A DNA stretch of 64,000 nt from Spirochaetia bacterium. GTDB taxonomy: Bacteria; Spirochaetota; Spirochaetia; SZUA-6; Bin103. A model generated the notes under the pieces. It was not told where the DNA came from, did no database searches, and saw nothing but the letters and a program-made list of their open reading frames with translations. The translations under genes and the position numbers were made by a program. Position 1 is the stretch's first letter. Each line of letters opens with the position of its first letter. The stretch is from the NCBI GenBank assembly GCA_965243545.1, contig OZ251573.1:74510-138509 (forward strand), written 5' to 3'. Of this stretch, positions 11,994-15,758 are shown in pieces.

Positions 11994-12521
11994 TCAGTCG
12001 AGGCGGTAGCCGCGGCCGCGTACGGTGGCGATCGGCTGCCGGGCCGCCAGCCGGGCAGCGTCCCCCGGCCGGGGCGCGTCCGCTGGCGCCGCCACCGCGG
12101 CCAGATGGCGCCGCAACGCGGTGACGTGCATGTCGACCGCCCGGCTGCGCCGGCCGGGCGGCCGGCCCCAGATGGCGTAGAACAGCGCGTCGCGGGTCAC
12201 CGCCGCGCCGCGGTTGGCCAGCAGCATGCGCAGGATCTCGGCTTGTTGCGCGCCCAGGGTGACGGCGCCGGCCGGTCCCGACAGGACCCGGCCCGACAGC
12301 CGTAGCGCGCCGCCGTCACCGAAGCGGGCGGCCGCCTCAGCTTGGCCGACGGTGCGGAGCGCGCGCAGCTCCAGCTCCTGCGGCGTCCACGGATCGCGCA
12401 GGTAGTCGGCGCAGCCGGCCAGGAACAGGCGCGGCAGCGCGTCCTCCGGCCCGTAGGCTATGAGCGGCCAGGCCGGCTCGACCGGTCCGGTCAGCAGACG
12501 TTCGGCGGCGGCGGCCGGCAT
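11994..12521 (-). CDS. OmpR/PhoB-type winged-helix transcriptional regulator with a truncated, aspartate-less receiver domain
   Basis: The C-terminus (TLGAQQAEILRMLLANRGAAVTRDALFYAIWGRPPGRRSRAVDMHVTALRRHL…VRGRGYRLD) is a trans_reg_C wHTH. The N-terminal 60 aa (PLIAYGPEDALPRLFLAGCADYLRDPWTPQELELRA) aligns with the alpha4-beta5-alpha5 region of a receiver. The same frame stays open upstream to a stop at 12888-12890 without any ATG, GTG or TTG, and encodes beta1-beta3-like strands (VCLVAPSG…AAVIMP) in which the phospho-acceptor Asp is replaced. Confidence 0.6.
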   Translation of the reverse strand: MPAAAAERLLTGPVEPAWPLIAYGPEDALPRLFLAGCADYLRDPWTPQELELRALRTVGQAEAAARFGDGGALRLSGRVLSGPAGAVTLGAQQAEILRMLLANRGAAVTRDALFYAIWGRPPGRRSRAVDMHVTALRRHLAAVAAPADAPRPGDAARLAARQPIATVRGRGYRLD

Positions 12522-12694
12522 GATGACGGCCGCGTAGCCGGGGTCGCGCGCGGCCGGCGGCTCGGCGGCGACTGCGAGCGTGAACCCTGCGATCCGGCGG
12601 GAGTAGGCGTTCAGACGGGCGCCGAGCGCCCCCGACGGAGCAACCAGGCAGACACACGGCAGTCCGGCGCGCGCCGCCGCGCCGCCCGGCGGGC

Positions 12695-12790
12695 TGTCGC
12701 CCGGGGGTTTGGCGCCCGGGGGTTTGGCGCTCAGGGGTTGGCGCCCGGATGGTTGGCCGCCCGGATGGTTGGCGCGCGACTGCGCCGAGA
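12695..12790. repeat. imperfect 15-16-bp tandem repeat (ggtttggcgcccggg-like, about 6 copies)
   Basis: Read as cccgggggtttggcgcccgggggtttggcgctcaggggttggcgcccggatggttggccgcccggatggttggcgc. It lies in the start-less upstream extension of the regulator frame, where it would encode PPGAKPPGAKPPG. Confidence 0.5.
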
Positions 12791-12819
12791 TGGCGGCGGG
12801 TCCGGCCGGCGCCGCCCGG

Positions 12820-13546: not shown

Positions 13547-13939
13547 TCAGCGGTCCCCCGTTTTCACCAGCGGCAGAAGCCGCTCGTAGTGCTCGGCGAC
13601 CGACAGGCTGATCGCGTCGAGCGTTGCCTGGAACTCCTCGATGTCGATCGTCTCGCTGAGCAGCGTGTTGATCATGACGATGGAGTCCCCTTCCAGAGCG
13701 TAGGCGCCGTGCAGCAGGTCGGTGCCGTTGAGGCGCAGCAGTTCGGCGTAGAGCGCGCAGTGGTCGCCCGGCGGCAGGTCGGTGACCTTGAGCCGGAAGA
13801 TGACCACCGGTTCGTCGTGCGCGACGACGAGGTTTTCGACCCCGCGCTCTTCGTCGTTGATCACCCAGGTGTCGCTGTCGAGTTCCTCGAACGACAGCCC
13901 GAGCGTGCGGAGAAAGCTTTCGATTCGTTGACGAGTCAT
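13547..13939 (-). CDS. YbjN-domain protein (putative sensory-transduction-regulator / T3SS-chaperone-like fold), PspA-associated
   Basis: 131 aa, MTRQRIESFLRTLGLSFEELDSDTWVINDEE…LYAELLRLN…GAYALEGDSIVMINTLLSETIDIEEF, a YbjN-like pattern. It overlaps the upstream STAS gene's stop by 4 nt (ATGA) and is 1 nt from the pspA start. Start trimmed to ATG 13939. Confidence 0.6.
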   Translation of the reverse strand: MTRQRIESFLRTLGLSFEELDSDTWVINDEERGVENLVVAHDEPVVIFRLKVTDLPPGDHCALYAELLRLNGTDLLHGAYALEGDSIVMINTLLSETIDIEEFQATLDAISLSVAEHYERLLPLVKTGDR

Positions 13940-14445
13940 GCTGCGAATACCTGTGCGCCGTAGTTGATCGCCAGGACCGCCTGGCACTGAGAGCAGCGGA
14001 ACCGGCCCGGCTTGACGGTGCGGAGCCGGGCCGCGCACGCCGGGCACGTCACTACCTGTGGAAAGAGTACCGCCGGCGCGGGCCGTCCGGCCGCGGTCAG
14101 CCGGGACACCGCTTGGTCGACGTCTGCGGCGACGGTGAACAGATCGGCAAAGCCGAGCAGACGGAACGCTTCGCCCGCCGGCGCCGGCAGCGCGGCCAGC
14201 GCCACGTCACCGCCGCGCAGCCGCAACGCCCGTTGCAGGGCCGCGAACACGCCGATGGCGGGGCCGGTGAGCTCCCGCAGGCCGGCGCAGTCGATGATGA
14301 GCCGCACGCAACCGGCCGCCAACGCCGCGTCGGCGCGGGCCCGGAACCGGTCCGAGTCATCGGCGCCGAGGCGGCCGTTGAGGCGCAGCACCATGCAGCC
14401 GTCGGCCCCGCTACGGGCTTCGGCCCCGGCCGGCTGCGGCCGCAT
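13936..14445 (-). CDS. STAS-domain protein (anti-sigma-factor-antagonist fold) with C-terminal CxxC…CxxC zinc ribbon
   Basis: MVLRLNGRLGADDSDRFRARADAALAAGCVRLIIDCAGLRELTGPAIGVFAALQRALRLRGGDVALAAL…FADLFTV is a SpoIIAA-like STAS domain. The C-terminal segment CPACAARLRTVKPGRFRCSQC is a zinc ribbon. The start is ambiguous: ATG 14445, ATG 14394 or TTG 14562. Confidence 0.55.
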   Translation of the reverse strand: MRPQPAGAEARSGADGCMVLRLNGRLGADDSDRFRARADAALAAGCVRLIIDCAGLRELTGPAIGVFAALQRALRLRGGDVALAALPAPAGEAFRLLGFADLFTVAADVDQAVSRLTAAGRPAPAVLFPQVVTCPACAARLRTVKPGRFRCSQCQAVLAINYGAQVFAA

Positions 14446-14609
14446 CGCCGGATGGTCCGATCGCCCGCCGAGCCGGCCGCTCACGGTTGCGTCTACTGCG
14501 GATTCGGTTGCGGCGTTCGACACGACACCGCAAGCATAGCCGCGGCGGCCCATGCTCGTCAAACGCCGCAGGCAGGTCGGGTCGATCCACGCGGGGTCGA
14601 TCGCTGCGG

Positions 14610-15758
14610 CTATCCGAAGCGGATCGCGTTGGCGTCGACGGTGCGCCGGTCACCCGGCTGCACGCCGGCCAGCAGGGTGGCGCGCTCGATGACGTTGCGC
14701 AGCTCGCGCACGTTGCCCGGCCACAGGTGATCTTCCAGCTTGGCCTGCGCCTGCGGGGTCAGGCGCAGCTCCGGCGGCAGGAAGTGGTACGCCAGCTCGG
14801 CTACGTCCTGCCGCCGCTCGCGCAACGGCGGCACGTGGATCAGCAGCACGCCGATCCGGTAGTACAGATCGACGCGGAAGCGGCCCGCCTCCAGCAAGTC
14901 GGCCAGCACCACGTTGCTGGCGGCGATGGTGCGGACGTTGACGGTGATGGCGCGCGTGCCGCCGACGCGGGTCACCTCCTTCGCCTCCAGCACGCGCAGG
15001 AGCTTCACCTGCATGTCGCTGCCCATCTCGCCGATCTCGTCGAGAAACAACGTGCCGTTGTCGGCCTGCTCGAAGCAGCCGGGGCGGCGCGTGGCGTCCG
15101 TGAAGGCGCCCCGTTCGGAGCCGAACAGCTCCGCCTCCATGATGGTCGGCGCGATGGCGCCGCAGTTGATCGCCACCCAGGGCCGGCCGGCCCGCGGCGA
15201 ACTGGCGTGCAGGCTGCGGGCGACCACTTCCTTGCCGACGCCGCTTTCGCCCGACACCACAACCGGCGCGTTGGCCGGCGCGTACAGGGCGACCTCGTCG
15301 CGGACGCGCTGCATCTGCGGGCTGGAGCCGATCAGGCCGTCGATGGCCGCCGCGGCGGGCCGGCGGCGCGCCTCCACCGCCTGCCGCATGGTGCCGCGCA
15401 GCTTGTCGAGCGCGAGCGGCTTGATCAGGTAGTCGACCGCGCCGGCGCGCATCGCCTCCACCACCAGCTCGACGTCGTCGTGAGCGCTGATCATCACCAC
15501 CGGCGGGGCGTCCGGGCGCGTGTTCACCTGCCGCACCACCTCGATGCCGTCGGCCGATCCGAGCGCGACGTCCATCAGCACCACGTCCGGCCGTTCCGCT
15601 TCGACCAACGCCAGCGCCTGCGGAGCGGTCTGCGCGCCGACCACGCGGTATTCGGCCGGCAGGATGGCCGCCAACGTGTCGTGGATCAGCGGATCGTCGT
15701 CGACCAGCAGCAGGGTGATCACGGCGCTGCCGGCCGTTGCTGCGGGTGGCGATGCCAC
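14610..15758 (-). CDS. sigma-54-dependent response regulator (receiver + AAA+ sigma54-activator domain) lacking a C-terminal HTH DNA-binding domain
   Basis: The receiver LLVDDDPLIHDTLAAIL…DVVLMDVAL…VVMISAHDDVELVVEAMRAGAVDYLIKP is followed by an AAA+ core with Walker A GESGVGKE, a GAFTDA variant of the GAFTGA loop, Walker B TLFLDEIGEM, and the sensor LWPGNVRELRNVIERA. The protein ends about 20 aa later with no Fis-type HTH. The GTG start overlaps the rsmE stop. Confidence 0.8.
   Translation of the reverse strand: MASPPAATAGSAVITLLLVDDDPLIHDTLAAILPAEYRVVGAQTAPQALALVEAERPDVVLMDVALGSADGIEVVRQVNTRPDAPPVVMISAHDDVELVVEAMRAGAVDYLIKPLALDKLRGTMRQAVEARRRPAAAAIDGLIGSSPQMQRVRDEVALYAPANAPVVVSGESGVGKEVVARSLHASSPRAGRPWVAINCGAIAPTIMEAELFGSERGAFTDATRRPGCFEQADNGTLFLDEIGEMGSDMQVKLLRVLEAKEVTRVGGTRAITVNVRTIAASNVVLADLLEAGRFRVDLYYRIGVLLIHVPPLRERRQDVAELAYHFLPPELRLTPQAQAKLEDHLWPGNVRELRNVIERATLLAGVQPGDRRTVDANAIRFG

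Follow-up and report, generated by a model that had tools for sequence, protein, structure and literature searches.

We analyzed a stretch of 64,000 nucleotides from a Spirochaetia bacterium (contig OZ251573.1, assembly GCA_965243545.1; hereafter the window, with G+C content of ~70%), focusing on a locus that encodes PspA/IM30, a membrane-repair protein of the ESCRT-III type. CesT-like homologues at 84-100% identity sit on uncultured Spirochaetia contigs. Both the open reading frame (ORF) listing and Pfam assignment indicated seven minus-strand genes in the same direction, encoding an S41 protease, RsmE, a sigma-54 activator, a STAS protein, a CesT/YbjN-like protein, PspA_IM30, and a Trans_reg_C protein with a winged helix-turn-helix (wHTH), the gene for the last being convergent with that for H+-pyrophosphatase (H+-PPase). 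The first-pass annotation had grouped the five genes from the activator onward into one psp operon. All five were found in the same direction and with the domains claimed for them, and their order is not due to chance, as it recurs in dozens of genomes. The genes are best read as two units: the first consists of the S41 protease, rsmE, and activator genes, and the second, the PspA module, of the genes for STAS with a zinc ribbon, the CesT/YbjN-like protein, PspA, and an aspartate-less OmpR-type regulator. On balance, we consider it rather probable that the locus is made of these two adjacent units, that the PspA module has a sigma-70-type promoter of its own, and that its control involves the CesT-like and OmpR-type proteins.

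Table 1. Features of the PspA locus in the window
Feature	Position	Strand	Evidence or remark
S41 C-terminal processing protease (CtpA-like)	16562-18121 (ORF 16562-18139)	-	Pfam Peptidase_S41, PDZ, CtpB_N-like; first gene of upstream array
RsmE 16S rRNA methyltransferase	15719-16558	-	Pfam Methyltrans_RNA and PUA_4
NtrC1-type orphan sigma-54 activator, 370 aa	14610-15722 (ORF to 15758)	-	Response_reg, Sigma54_activat and AAA_lid_14; no HTH_8
Sigma-70-type promoter of the PspA module	14562-14533	-	TTGACG, 18-nt spacer, TATGCT
STAS with C-terminal four-Cys zinc ribbon (CxxC...CxxC)	13936-14523 (ORF to 14562)	-	Pfam STAS
CesT/Tir-like (YbjN-clan) small chaperone, 130 aa	13547-13939	-	CesT_Tir_1 2e-26, YbjN 9e-7, CesT 7e-6
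PspA/IM30 (ESCRT-III-type membrane-repair protein), 241 aa	12820-13545	-	PspA_IM30 (PF04012), E=1.4e-51
15-nt tandem repeat, ~6 copies, in PspA-wHTH spacer (12522-12819)	12683-12775	.	Tandem Repeats Finder and repeat finder
Aspartate-less OmpR/PhoB-type regulator (wHTH)	11994-12665 (first canonical start ATG 12521)	-	Trans_reg_C (PF00486), 2e-15

For comparison with other genomes, 163 CesT-like homologues were collected (E ≤ 0.001), and by use of the CesT alignment, 80 loci were fetched from species-representative genomes. Adding three contigs from the species of the window itself brought the set to 83 loci. The loci were scored with phmmer using the window's proteins; 60 loci are of spirochaete type and 20 of other phyla (Myxococcota, Chloroflexota, Clostridia, and others). 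The carriers of the module include metagenome-assembled genomes of Treponema and Sediminispirochaeta. The word-based search for STAS homologues covered the high-GC clade only (35 proteins), and for the wider STAS family the loci already retrieved served as the source.

Promoters and probable units of the locus

The sigma-70-type promoter of the PspA module, close to consensus, is located between the activator and STAS genes. A scan for promoters of this type yielded three sites within 6.5 kb, as against 0.1 expected. After alignment of the activator-STAS intergenic sequences, the conserved columns were TTGAC and GCTATAcT, and the element TTGAC(A/C/G)-N17/18-TAxxxT recurred, with its relative position unchanged, in 41 unique spirochaete loci that contain STAS, of both high and low G+C content. 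For a spirochaete sub-clade lacking STAS (L020, L022, L023, L027, L029, L032, and L034-L036), a sigma-70-type element was found at -50 of the CesT gene in most loci. Extra TTGAC repeats near -35 (at -11 or +15) were detected in some sub-lineages only. A sigma-70-like sequence, TTGACA-N18-GAGAAT, is also present ahead of the S41 protease gene (18161-18132), for which the gene calls of relatives indicate 519 aa, in agreement with a start at ATG 18121.

The position of this promoter bears on the start of the STAS gene. TTG 14562, the first base of the 208-codon ORF, is at the same time the first base of the -35 hexamer TTGACG, and homology to distant orthologues begins only ~40-50 codons into the ORF. 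Low-GC spirochaetes carry an ATG with Shine-Dalgarno sequence 27 codons ahead of the onset of homology, and the sole conserved in-frame start in the high-GC clade is a GTG, at 14523 in the window. A database cluster member of 100% identity (P0121, ncbi/ena; 169 aa) corresponds to ATG 14445. The predicted start is either GTG 14523 (195 aa) or ATG 14445 (169 aa). The 47-nt gap once measured after the activator is thus an artefact of the over-extended ORF; the true gap is 86-164 nt and includes the promoter. Both in front of GTG 14523 of the STAS gene (14521-14538) and in front of ATG 18121 of the S41 protease gene (18119-18137), on the minus strand, the -10 box lies 9-10 nt before the likely start. 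The distance of only 9 nt from the -10 box to GTG 14523 suggests a near-leaderless STAS mRNA, and in this spirochaete of high G+C content, leaderless or near-leaderless mRNAs may be formed from both genes. In low-GC relatives the leaders are of the usual kind and include Shine-Dalgarno sites.

Sigma-54 control had been proposed for the module, together with a search for a -24/-12 element in the activator-STAS gap and upstream. The proposal is not supported: no such site was detected before the STAS, CesT, or pspA gene in the 83 loci, and a conserved sigma-70-type promoter stands in the gap instead. By search for TGGCAC-N5-TTGC with up to two mismatches, 44 matches were obtained in the window as against 64 in shuffled sequences, with none near the genes or in the activator-STAS gap; sites agreeing at 10 of the 11 consensus positions were absent from the 64-kb window, and none recurred at a conserved place in the loci. 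A GG/GC-anchored scan of 350 nt upstream of STAS or CesT gave 0.30 weak matches per kb, lower than the background of 0.56, over the 83 loci. Likewise, within 300 nt upstream of each of the seven genes in the same loci, no sigma-54 sites above background were found. One recurring sequence, TGGCAC-N5-cAGCA at 65-72 nt before pspA in low-GC loci (L033, L037, L040, L041, L043, L049, L073, and L078), was tried as a sigma-54 site and rejected. Its -12 position reads cAGCA in place of TTGCA, the window does not contain it, and since it coincides with LALAQH, a conserved motif of CesT, we read it as a coding by-product.

The start of the activator gene, set at 15758 by the ORF listing, is most likely GTG 15722, of which GTGA overlaps the rsmE stop. 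The same overlap and the same length of 370 aa were found in the gene calls of three near-identical contigs (L001-L003), and GTG 15722 precedes the first receiver strand (ITLLLVDDD). Because of this overlap, the activator is considered to be translationally coupled to rsmE and to be the last gene of the S41-protease-rsmE-activator array. The rsmE gene itself includes a 15-nt tandem repeat (16281-16336, minus strand), which encodes (PVLDG)x4 between the PUA and catalytic domains of RsmE.

By reading of the sequence, the activator receiver is intact, including the DD pair, acceptor Asp (VVLMDVAL), Ser, and Lys (LIKP). The AAA+ domain (PF00158, E=2e-60) carries the Walker motifs GESGVGKE and LFLDEIGE. 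The protein ends 30 aa past NVREL, and spirochaete orthologues end 25-70 aa past it; no HTH was detected by Pfam in the window protein, nor in any spirochaete orthologue recovered. The description of an activator having an intact receiver and lacking a DNA-binding domain was therefore confirmed, and applies to all spirochaete orthologues recovered. The best PDB matches were Aquifex NtrC-family chains (4l4u and 1ny5, E ~1e-80), followed by PspF chains (1e-52), and all NCBIfam matches stayed below cut-off (e.g., FlgR with 243 bits vs 750). The sigma-54 contact loop reads GAFTDA (residues ~196-201; window ~15120-15137, minus strand). Among orthologues the loop is GA[FY]T[GD]A, and GA[FY]TGA and GA[FY]TDA alternate even among close spirochaete relatives (L004-L083), so this HTH-less family evidently tolerates either Gly or Asp at that position. 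GAFTDA and GAYTDA are also listed for enhancer-binding proteins of Desulfovibrio vulgaris with assigned sigma-54 regulons (PMC4641369). The loop Asp is therefore no argument against sigma-54 activation, and the idea of a dead sigma-54 loop was rejected, GAFTDA being widespread among the orthologues as well.

The distance between the activator stop and the next gene of the module was 39-63 nt where STAS is missing, 84-119 nt in the clade to which the window belongs, and 680-2512 nt in the remaining spirochaetes. The interval is occupied in L058 by an opposite-strand SpoU methylase gene, and in L077 by a short-chain dehydrogenase gene and unassigned ORFs; L077 carries in addition a WecG glycosyltransferase gene between rsmE and the activator. 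The inclusion of the activator in the same operon could not be upheld, for it is coupled to rsmE, lies 0.7-2.5 kb off in more distant spirochaetes, and is separated from the module by unrelated genes in the two loci inspected. Genes for the S41 protease, RsmE and, in many loci, H+-PPase are equally syntenic with the module, and the proximity of the activator is therefore taken as an inherited chromosomal neighborhood. The array in the window is taken to be compact because variable filler genes were lost in the high-GC clade.

A single psp operon, driven by sigma-54 with the adjacent HTH-less activator and with STAS and pseudo-receiver layered on it, is favored by several features: all the genes lie compactly on one strand, no terminator-like site was detected between activator and STAS, the activator is a credible enhancer-binding protein with Walker motifs and the GAFTDA loop, and it stands upstream on the same strand in 36/47 spirochaete-type loci (0/13 in other phyla). 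Such an operon is nevertheless highly improbable, as a -24/-12 element was found nowhere relevant, the one recurring candidate lacks TTGC, a conserved sigma-70-type promoter precedes STAS, and the activator belongs to the rsmE array, with unrelated genes, partly on the opposite strand, between it and the module in the loci inspected.

A tie between the activator and PspA after transcription is also to be considered: PspA could inhibit the ATPase, as in the PspA-PspF pair, and so control sigma-54 promoters at a distance, or the AAA+ ring could remodel PspA polymers in the manner of Vps4 acting on ESCRT-III. Associations of PspA homologues with AAA+ ATPases are recurrent (PMC11237479), an activator without DNA-binding domain would be a free AAA+ ring, and its same-strand proximity is kept across the phylum. 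We regard this tie as very unlikely, since the S41, rsmE, and H+-PPase genes are equally syntenic, so that inheritance suffices to explain the proximity, and the loop, conserved as GA[FY]T[GD]A, points to sigma-54 as the substrate. Trp56 of PspF, a contact residue for PspA, aligns with Ala in the activator, an observation to be used as a lead only.

The CesT-PspA dyad and its spirochaete additions

The pspA gene directly follows the CesT gene in 78/80 loci (59/60 of spirochaete type and 19/20 of other phyla), which altogether represent four phyla. STAS is located directly before CesT in 44/58 spirochaete-type loci, vs 0/19 in other phyla; the wHTH gene directly follows pspA in 44/57 spirochaete-type loci, and is further away in seven more, vs 0/14 in other phyla. 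Outside Spirochaetota the dyad is flanked by unrelated genes, such as those for a chemoreceptor, a K+ channel, a dehydrogenase, and a radical-SAM enzyme; consistent partners of the dyad in these phyla were looked for and rejected on this account. Since the dyad is kept across phyla and the STAS and wHTH flanks are confined to spirochaetes, the core of the locus is therefore the two-gene CesT-PspA dyad, and STAS with zinc ribbon and wHTH are spirochaete-specific additions. The neighborhood survey had been set as a refuting test of the first-pass annotation; the adjacency of STAS, CesT, PspA, and wHTH was kept across Spirochaetota, and for these four genes the association stands.

At the junction of STAS and CesT an ATGA overlap was found, and at that of CesT and PspA the arrangement TGA-t-ATG with a 1-nt gap. 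STAS, CesT, and PspA are shown to be translationally coupled. The tight packing described before holds for these three genes and breaks down between PspA and wHTH, where ATG 12521 comes 298 nt after the stop of PspA. The window PspA scores 162 bits with the NCBIfam model phageshock_pspA, below the equivalog cut-off of 243.

A dyad of CesT/Tir and PspA, together with the proposal of a chaperone role, was described by Ravi et al. (2024, mSystems; PMC11237479), and the view of the YbjN-type gene as foreign to textbook Psp systems is out of date. The published dyads share with the window a small CesT/Tir gene just upstream of a co-directional pspA, alone or in larger operons. The larger contexts reported are band-7/flotillin, spermine-synthase, and ATP-grasp polyamine operons, and STAS is mentioned neither in the main text nor in the supplement consulted. 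The locus is a spirochaete elaboration of the published dyad, and the context of STAS with zinc ribbon upstream and an aspartate-less OmpR-type protein downstream is not described there.

A similar gene pair is known in Pseudomonas aeruginosa, BacA-BacB (PA3732-PA3731), and in Escherichia coli, YjfI-YjfJ, each having a gene of CesT/YbjN fold just before the PspA homologue. A crystal structure is known for BacA, which is reported, on the basis of unpublished work, to interact strongly with BacB, the PspA homologue of the pair (PMC10948618). BacA and YjfI differ in belonging to DUF2170 (PF09938), to which no match was found at the window locus. The genes further downstream in the bac cluster are different ones, and ahead of bacA a putative sigma-54 site has been reported, which has no counterpart at the window locus.

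A second, bare CesT-PspA dyad was observed in the large Spirochaetia genomes L007, L010, L011, and L017 (~7001-8130 in each), without STAS, wHTH, or activator. Promoter matches of TTGAC type were located at -51 in L007 and at ~-215 in L011 and L017. The second dyad of L010 adjoins AAA_15/AAA_21 and pentapeptide/FRG genes.

The STAS protein was modeled by AlphaFold2 from 21 sequences (predicted local distance difference test, pLDDT, of 77). By Foldseek search with this model, SpoIIAA and RsbV came first, with TM to target of 0.85-0.90 and probability of 1.00; MlaB and SLC26 transporters were also among the matches. Cysteines C134, C137, C151, and C154 are invariant. The assignment of an anti-sigma-antagonist-like fold of SpoIIAA/RsbV type, followed by a C-terminal zinc ribbon with four invariant Cys, was thereby borne out. 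At the alignment column of the SpoIIAA phospho-Ser (Ser58), Thr is present in the window protein and Ser in most aligned orthologues.

A partner switch of the classical phospho-dependent kind, linking the module to an alternative sigma factor by way of an anti-sigma kinase and a phosphatase from other parts of the genome, would fit these structural matches and the Ser/Thr at the phospho-site column. It is decidedly unlikely in our estimation. Annotation of the window locus and of the related loci inspected, for which no systematic domain scan was made, showed neither an anti-sigma kinase of HATPase type nor a PP2C phosphatase, and the partner switch put forward at first could not be sustained. 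The fused zinc ribbon is atypical of antagonists, one sub-clade retains the rest of the module without STAS, and STAS domains are known to have non-sigma roles, as the matches to MlaB and SLC26 illustrate. From SpoIIAA and RsbV, with which it shares the STAS fold, having a Thr aligned at the phospho-Ser position, the window protein is set apart by its four-Cys zinc ribbon, by its operonic association with a chaperone and PspA, and by the lack of an annotated kinase or phosphatase gene at these loci.

The aspartate-less OmpR-type regulator

The last gene of the module encodes a protein of OmpR/PhoB type. A profile made of 16 wHTH orthologues aligned over both domains of DrrB (PDB 1p2f) with E=4e-21, and many OmpR/PhoB proteins matched as well. 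In this family the acceptor Asp is replaced by Pro, the conserved Thr by Tyr or Gly, and the Lys by Asp or Glu. The receiver without phospho-acceptor Asp noticed in the first reading was accordingly confirmed by comparison of the family profile with DrrB. Invariant residues of the family cluster at PxIAYG and GCxDYL(R/K)(D/E)PW...EL..R, which by reading of the DrrB alignment would correspond to beta4 to alpha5. The face from beta4 to alpha5 is the surface for dimerization and signaling in the OmpR/PhoB family. A histidine kinase gene was found neither at the window locus nor at those of relatives that were inspected.

In the window the wHTH frame stays open far upstream of ATG 12521, and the residues encoded from ~12665 onward align with the orthologues over the first half of their receiver-like domain. 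Within the upstream stretch (12522-12665), however, none of ATG, GTG, and TTG is present in the window or in L001-L003, whereas ATG is found at the equivalent place in the sister genomes L004, L008, and L013. In comparison with five relatives, the upstream 49 codons gave a pN/pS (ratio of nonsynonymous to synonymous changes) of 0.27-0.50, similar to that of the downstream 175 codons, and the upstream part has therefore been under purifying selection, as expected of a coding region. Translation may begin at a rare start such as CTG 12662; otherwise the loss of the start codon must be recent.

The wHTH gene might also be decaying in the lineage of the window, or be translated only in truncated form from ATG 12521, leaving STAS, CesT, and PspA under constitutive sigma-70 transcription. 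We judge this course of events unlikely. The lack of a canonical start before the first strand of the receiver agrees with it, as do the nature of the spacer, with its variable tandem repeat and insertion site, and the finding that one gene caller gives only 83 aa in L001. The equal pN/pS of upstream and downstream parts argues against decay, the frame is open throughout, and CTG 12662 could serve as a rare start.

The spacer between PspA and wHTH varies among relatives. The tandem repeat is shorter or absent in the near-identical strains L001, L002, and L004, and sister genomes have insertions in the spacer, among them L008, with opposite-strand genes for a CobW GTPase and a zinc-binding ZnuA. 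As the wHTH gene is distant from pspA in five sister genomes and the insert of L008 is in the opposite strand, the regulator need not be co-transcribed with pspA.

Proposed control of PspA and relation to known systems

Based on these observations, we propose the following mechanism for the module. The CesT-like protein would bind PspA as a dimer, as was proposed for CesT/Tir-PspA dyads, and keep it soluble or competent for assembly until membrane damage recruits PspA; this step is consistent with the BacA-BacB interaction reported for P. aeruginosa (PMC10948618). The OmpR-type protein would be the DNA-binding regulator of the module. Because its receiver-like domain cannot be phosphorylated, it is presumably switched by protein contacts, made by PspA or STAS on the conserved beta4-alpha4-beta5-alpha5 region, with a logic analogous to the feedback of PspA on PspF and on ClgR. 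STAS with its zinc ribbon, which was lost in one spirochaete sub-clade, may provide a dispensable accessory input. The activator would act from solution on sigma-54 promoters elsewhere in the genome, as HTH-less activators do. In a more specific form, STAS or CesT-delivered PspA would dock on the pseudo-receiver as a phosphorylation-independent switch that is flipped by membrane damage, with the sigma-54 activator as a second output or input; we consider this form unlikely.

Several points weigh against two independent units and this mode of control. The activator is kept within 2.5 kb upstream and on the same strand across very divergent spirochaetes, and the cause of this persistent proximity could be a tie in function and not the inheritance of gene order. 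In the absence of a terminator-like site after the activator gene, read-through from the upstream array is possible in the window organism. The wHTH gene of the window is without a canonical full-length start and may be impaired here, and it lies 1.2-5 kb from pspA in the five sister genomes. No universal motif was found around the module promoter that could serve as the wHTH operator. Every protein-protein step of the mechanism was inferred by us.

With the PspF-PspABC system of E. coli, the locus shares a PspA effector and a nearby AAA+ sigma-54 activator, which is 41% identical over the AAA+ core to PspF. In PspF, by contrast, an HTH is present and a receiver is missing; its gene is transcribed divergently, and it drives the sigma-54 promoter of pspA, whereas the window activator has a receiver and no HTH, and a sigma-54 promoter is missing. 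No gene of the locus matches either PspB or PspC. Among the four defining features of PspF-PspABC, the locus has PspA and lacks three, namely the sigma-54 promoter, the PspF-type activator, and PspB/PspC. H. pylori FlgR and Chlamydia CtcC are HTH-less activators consisting of receiver and AAA+ domains without a C-terminal DNA-binding domain. The window activator is similar in domain composition to these and to Aquifex NtrC1, and differs in its loop, GAFTDA instead of GAFTGA, and in having no adjacent kinase.

In Mycobacterium tuberculosis (clgR-pspA-pspM-pspN) and Bacillus subtilis (liaIH-liaGFSR), a DNA-binding regulator is encoded together with pspA as well. ClgR is a Cro-like HTH protein and LiaRS a canonical two-component pair, whereas the window regulator is of OmpR type with a non-phosphorylatable receiver and has no histidine kinase. 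The atypical OmpR/PhoB protein HP1043 of H. pylori likewise combines receiver fold and winged helix without functional acceptor site. PDB 2hqr ('Putative transcriptional regulator'), which we take to be HP1043, was among the matches of the wHTH profile (E=5e-12). The window group is distinct from regulators of the HP1043 type in carrying Pro for Asp and Asp/Glu for Lys, and it was confined in our survey to spirochaete PspA loci. HTH or regulatory genes beside pspA in Spirochaetota were noted without textual detail by Popp et al. (2022; PMC9239133). A literature search on PspA in Treponema returned nothing relevant.

Elsewhere in the window, a region of lower G+C content (~34000-44000; 0.60-0.63 vs ~0.71) contains type I restriction-modification genes (HsdS and an N6_Mtase fragment), a gene for YgjP-like metallopeptidase fused to AAA_21 ATPase, and an ORF of 1163 aa without Pfam match, and has the appearance of a defence island that was acquired. 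A perfect 18-nt tandem repeat of 2.6 copies (19144-19189) lies over the 3' end of the plus-strand ORF 18223-19419, which is taken to be a candidate lgt because of where it lies in comparison with the gene called LGT in L001.

What is known of the control of PspA and other repair proteins of ESCRT-III type comes largely from Proteobacteria, Firmicutes, and Actinobacteria. The single sigma-54 psp operon first proposed gives way here to a module with its own sigma-70-type promoter, next to an activator that belongs to the rsmE array. Adjacency in a compact high-GC genome was in this case misleading, as the activator apparently came to stand next door through gene loss, and not as the driver of pspA. 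The locus would represent a phylum-wide spirochaete solution, in which a chaperone-PspA core is combined with STAS and zinc ribbon, a non-phosphorylatable OmpR-type regulator, and a sigma-70-type promoter. It offers concrete protein pairs through which PspA may be sensed without PspF, PspBC, or LiaRS.

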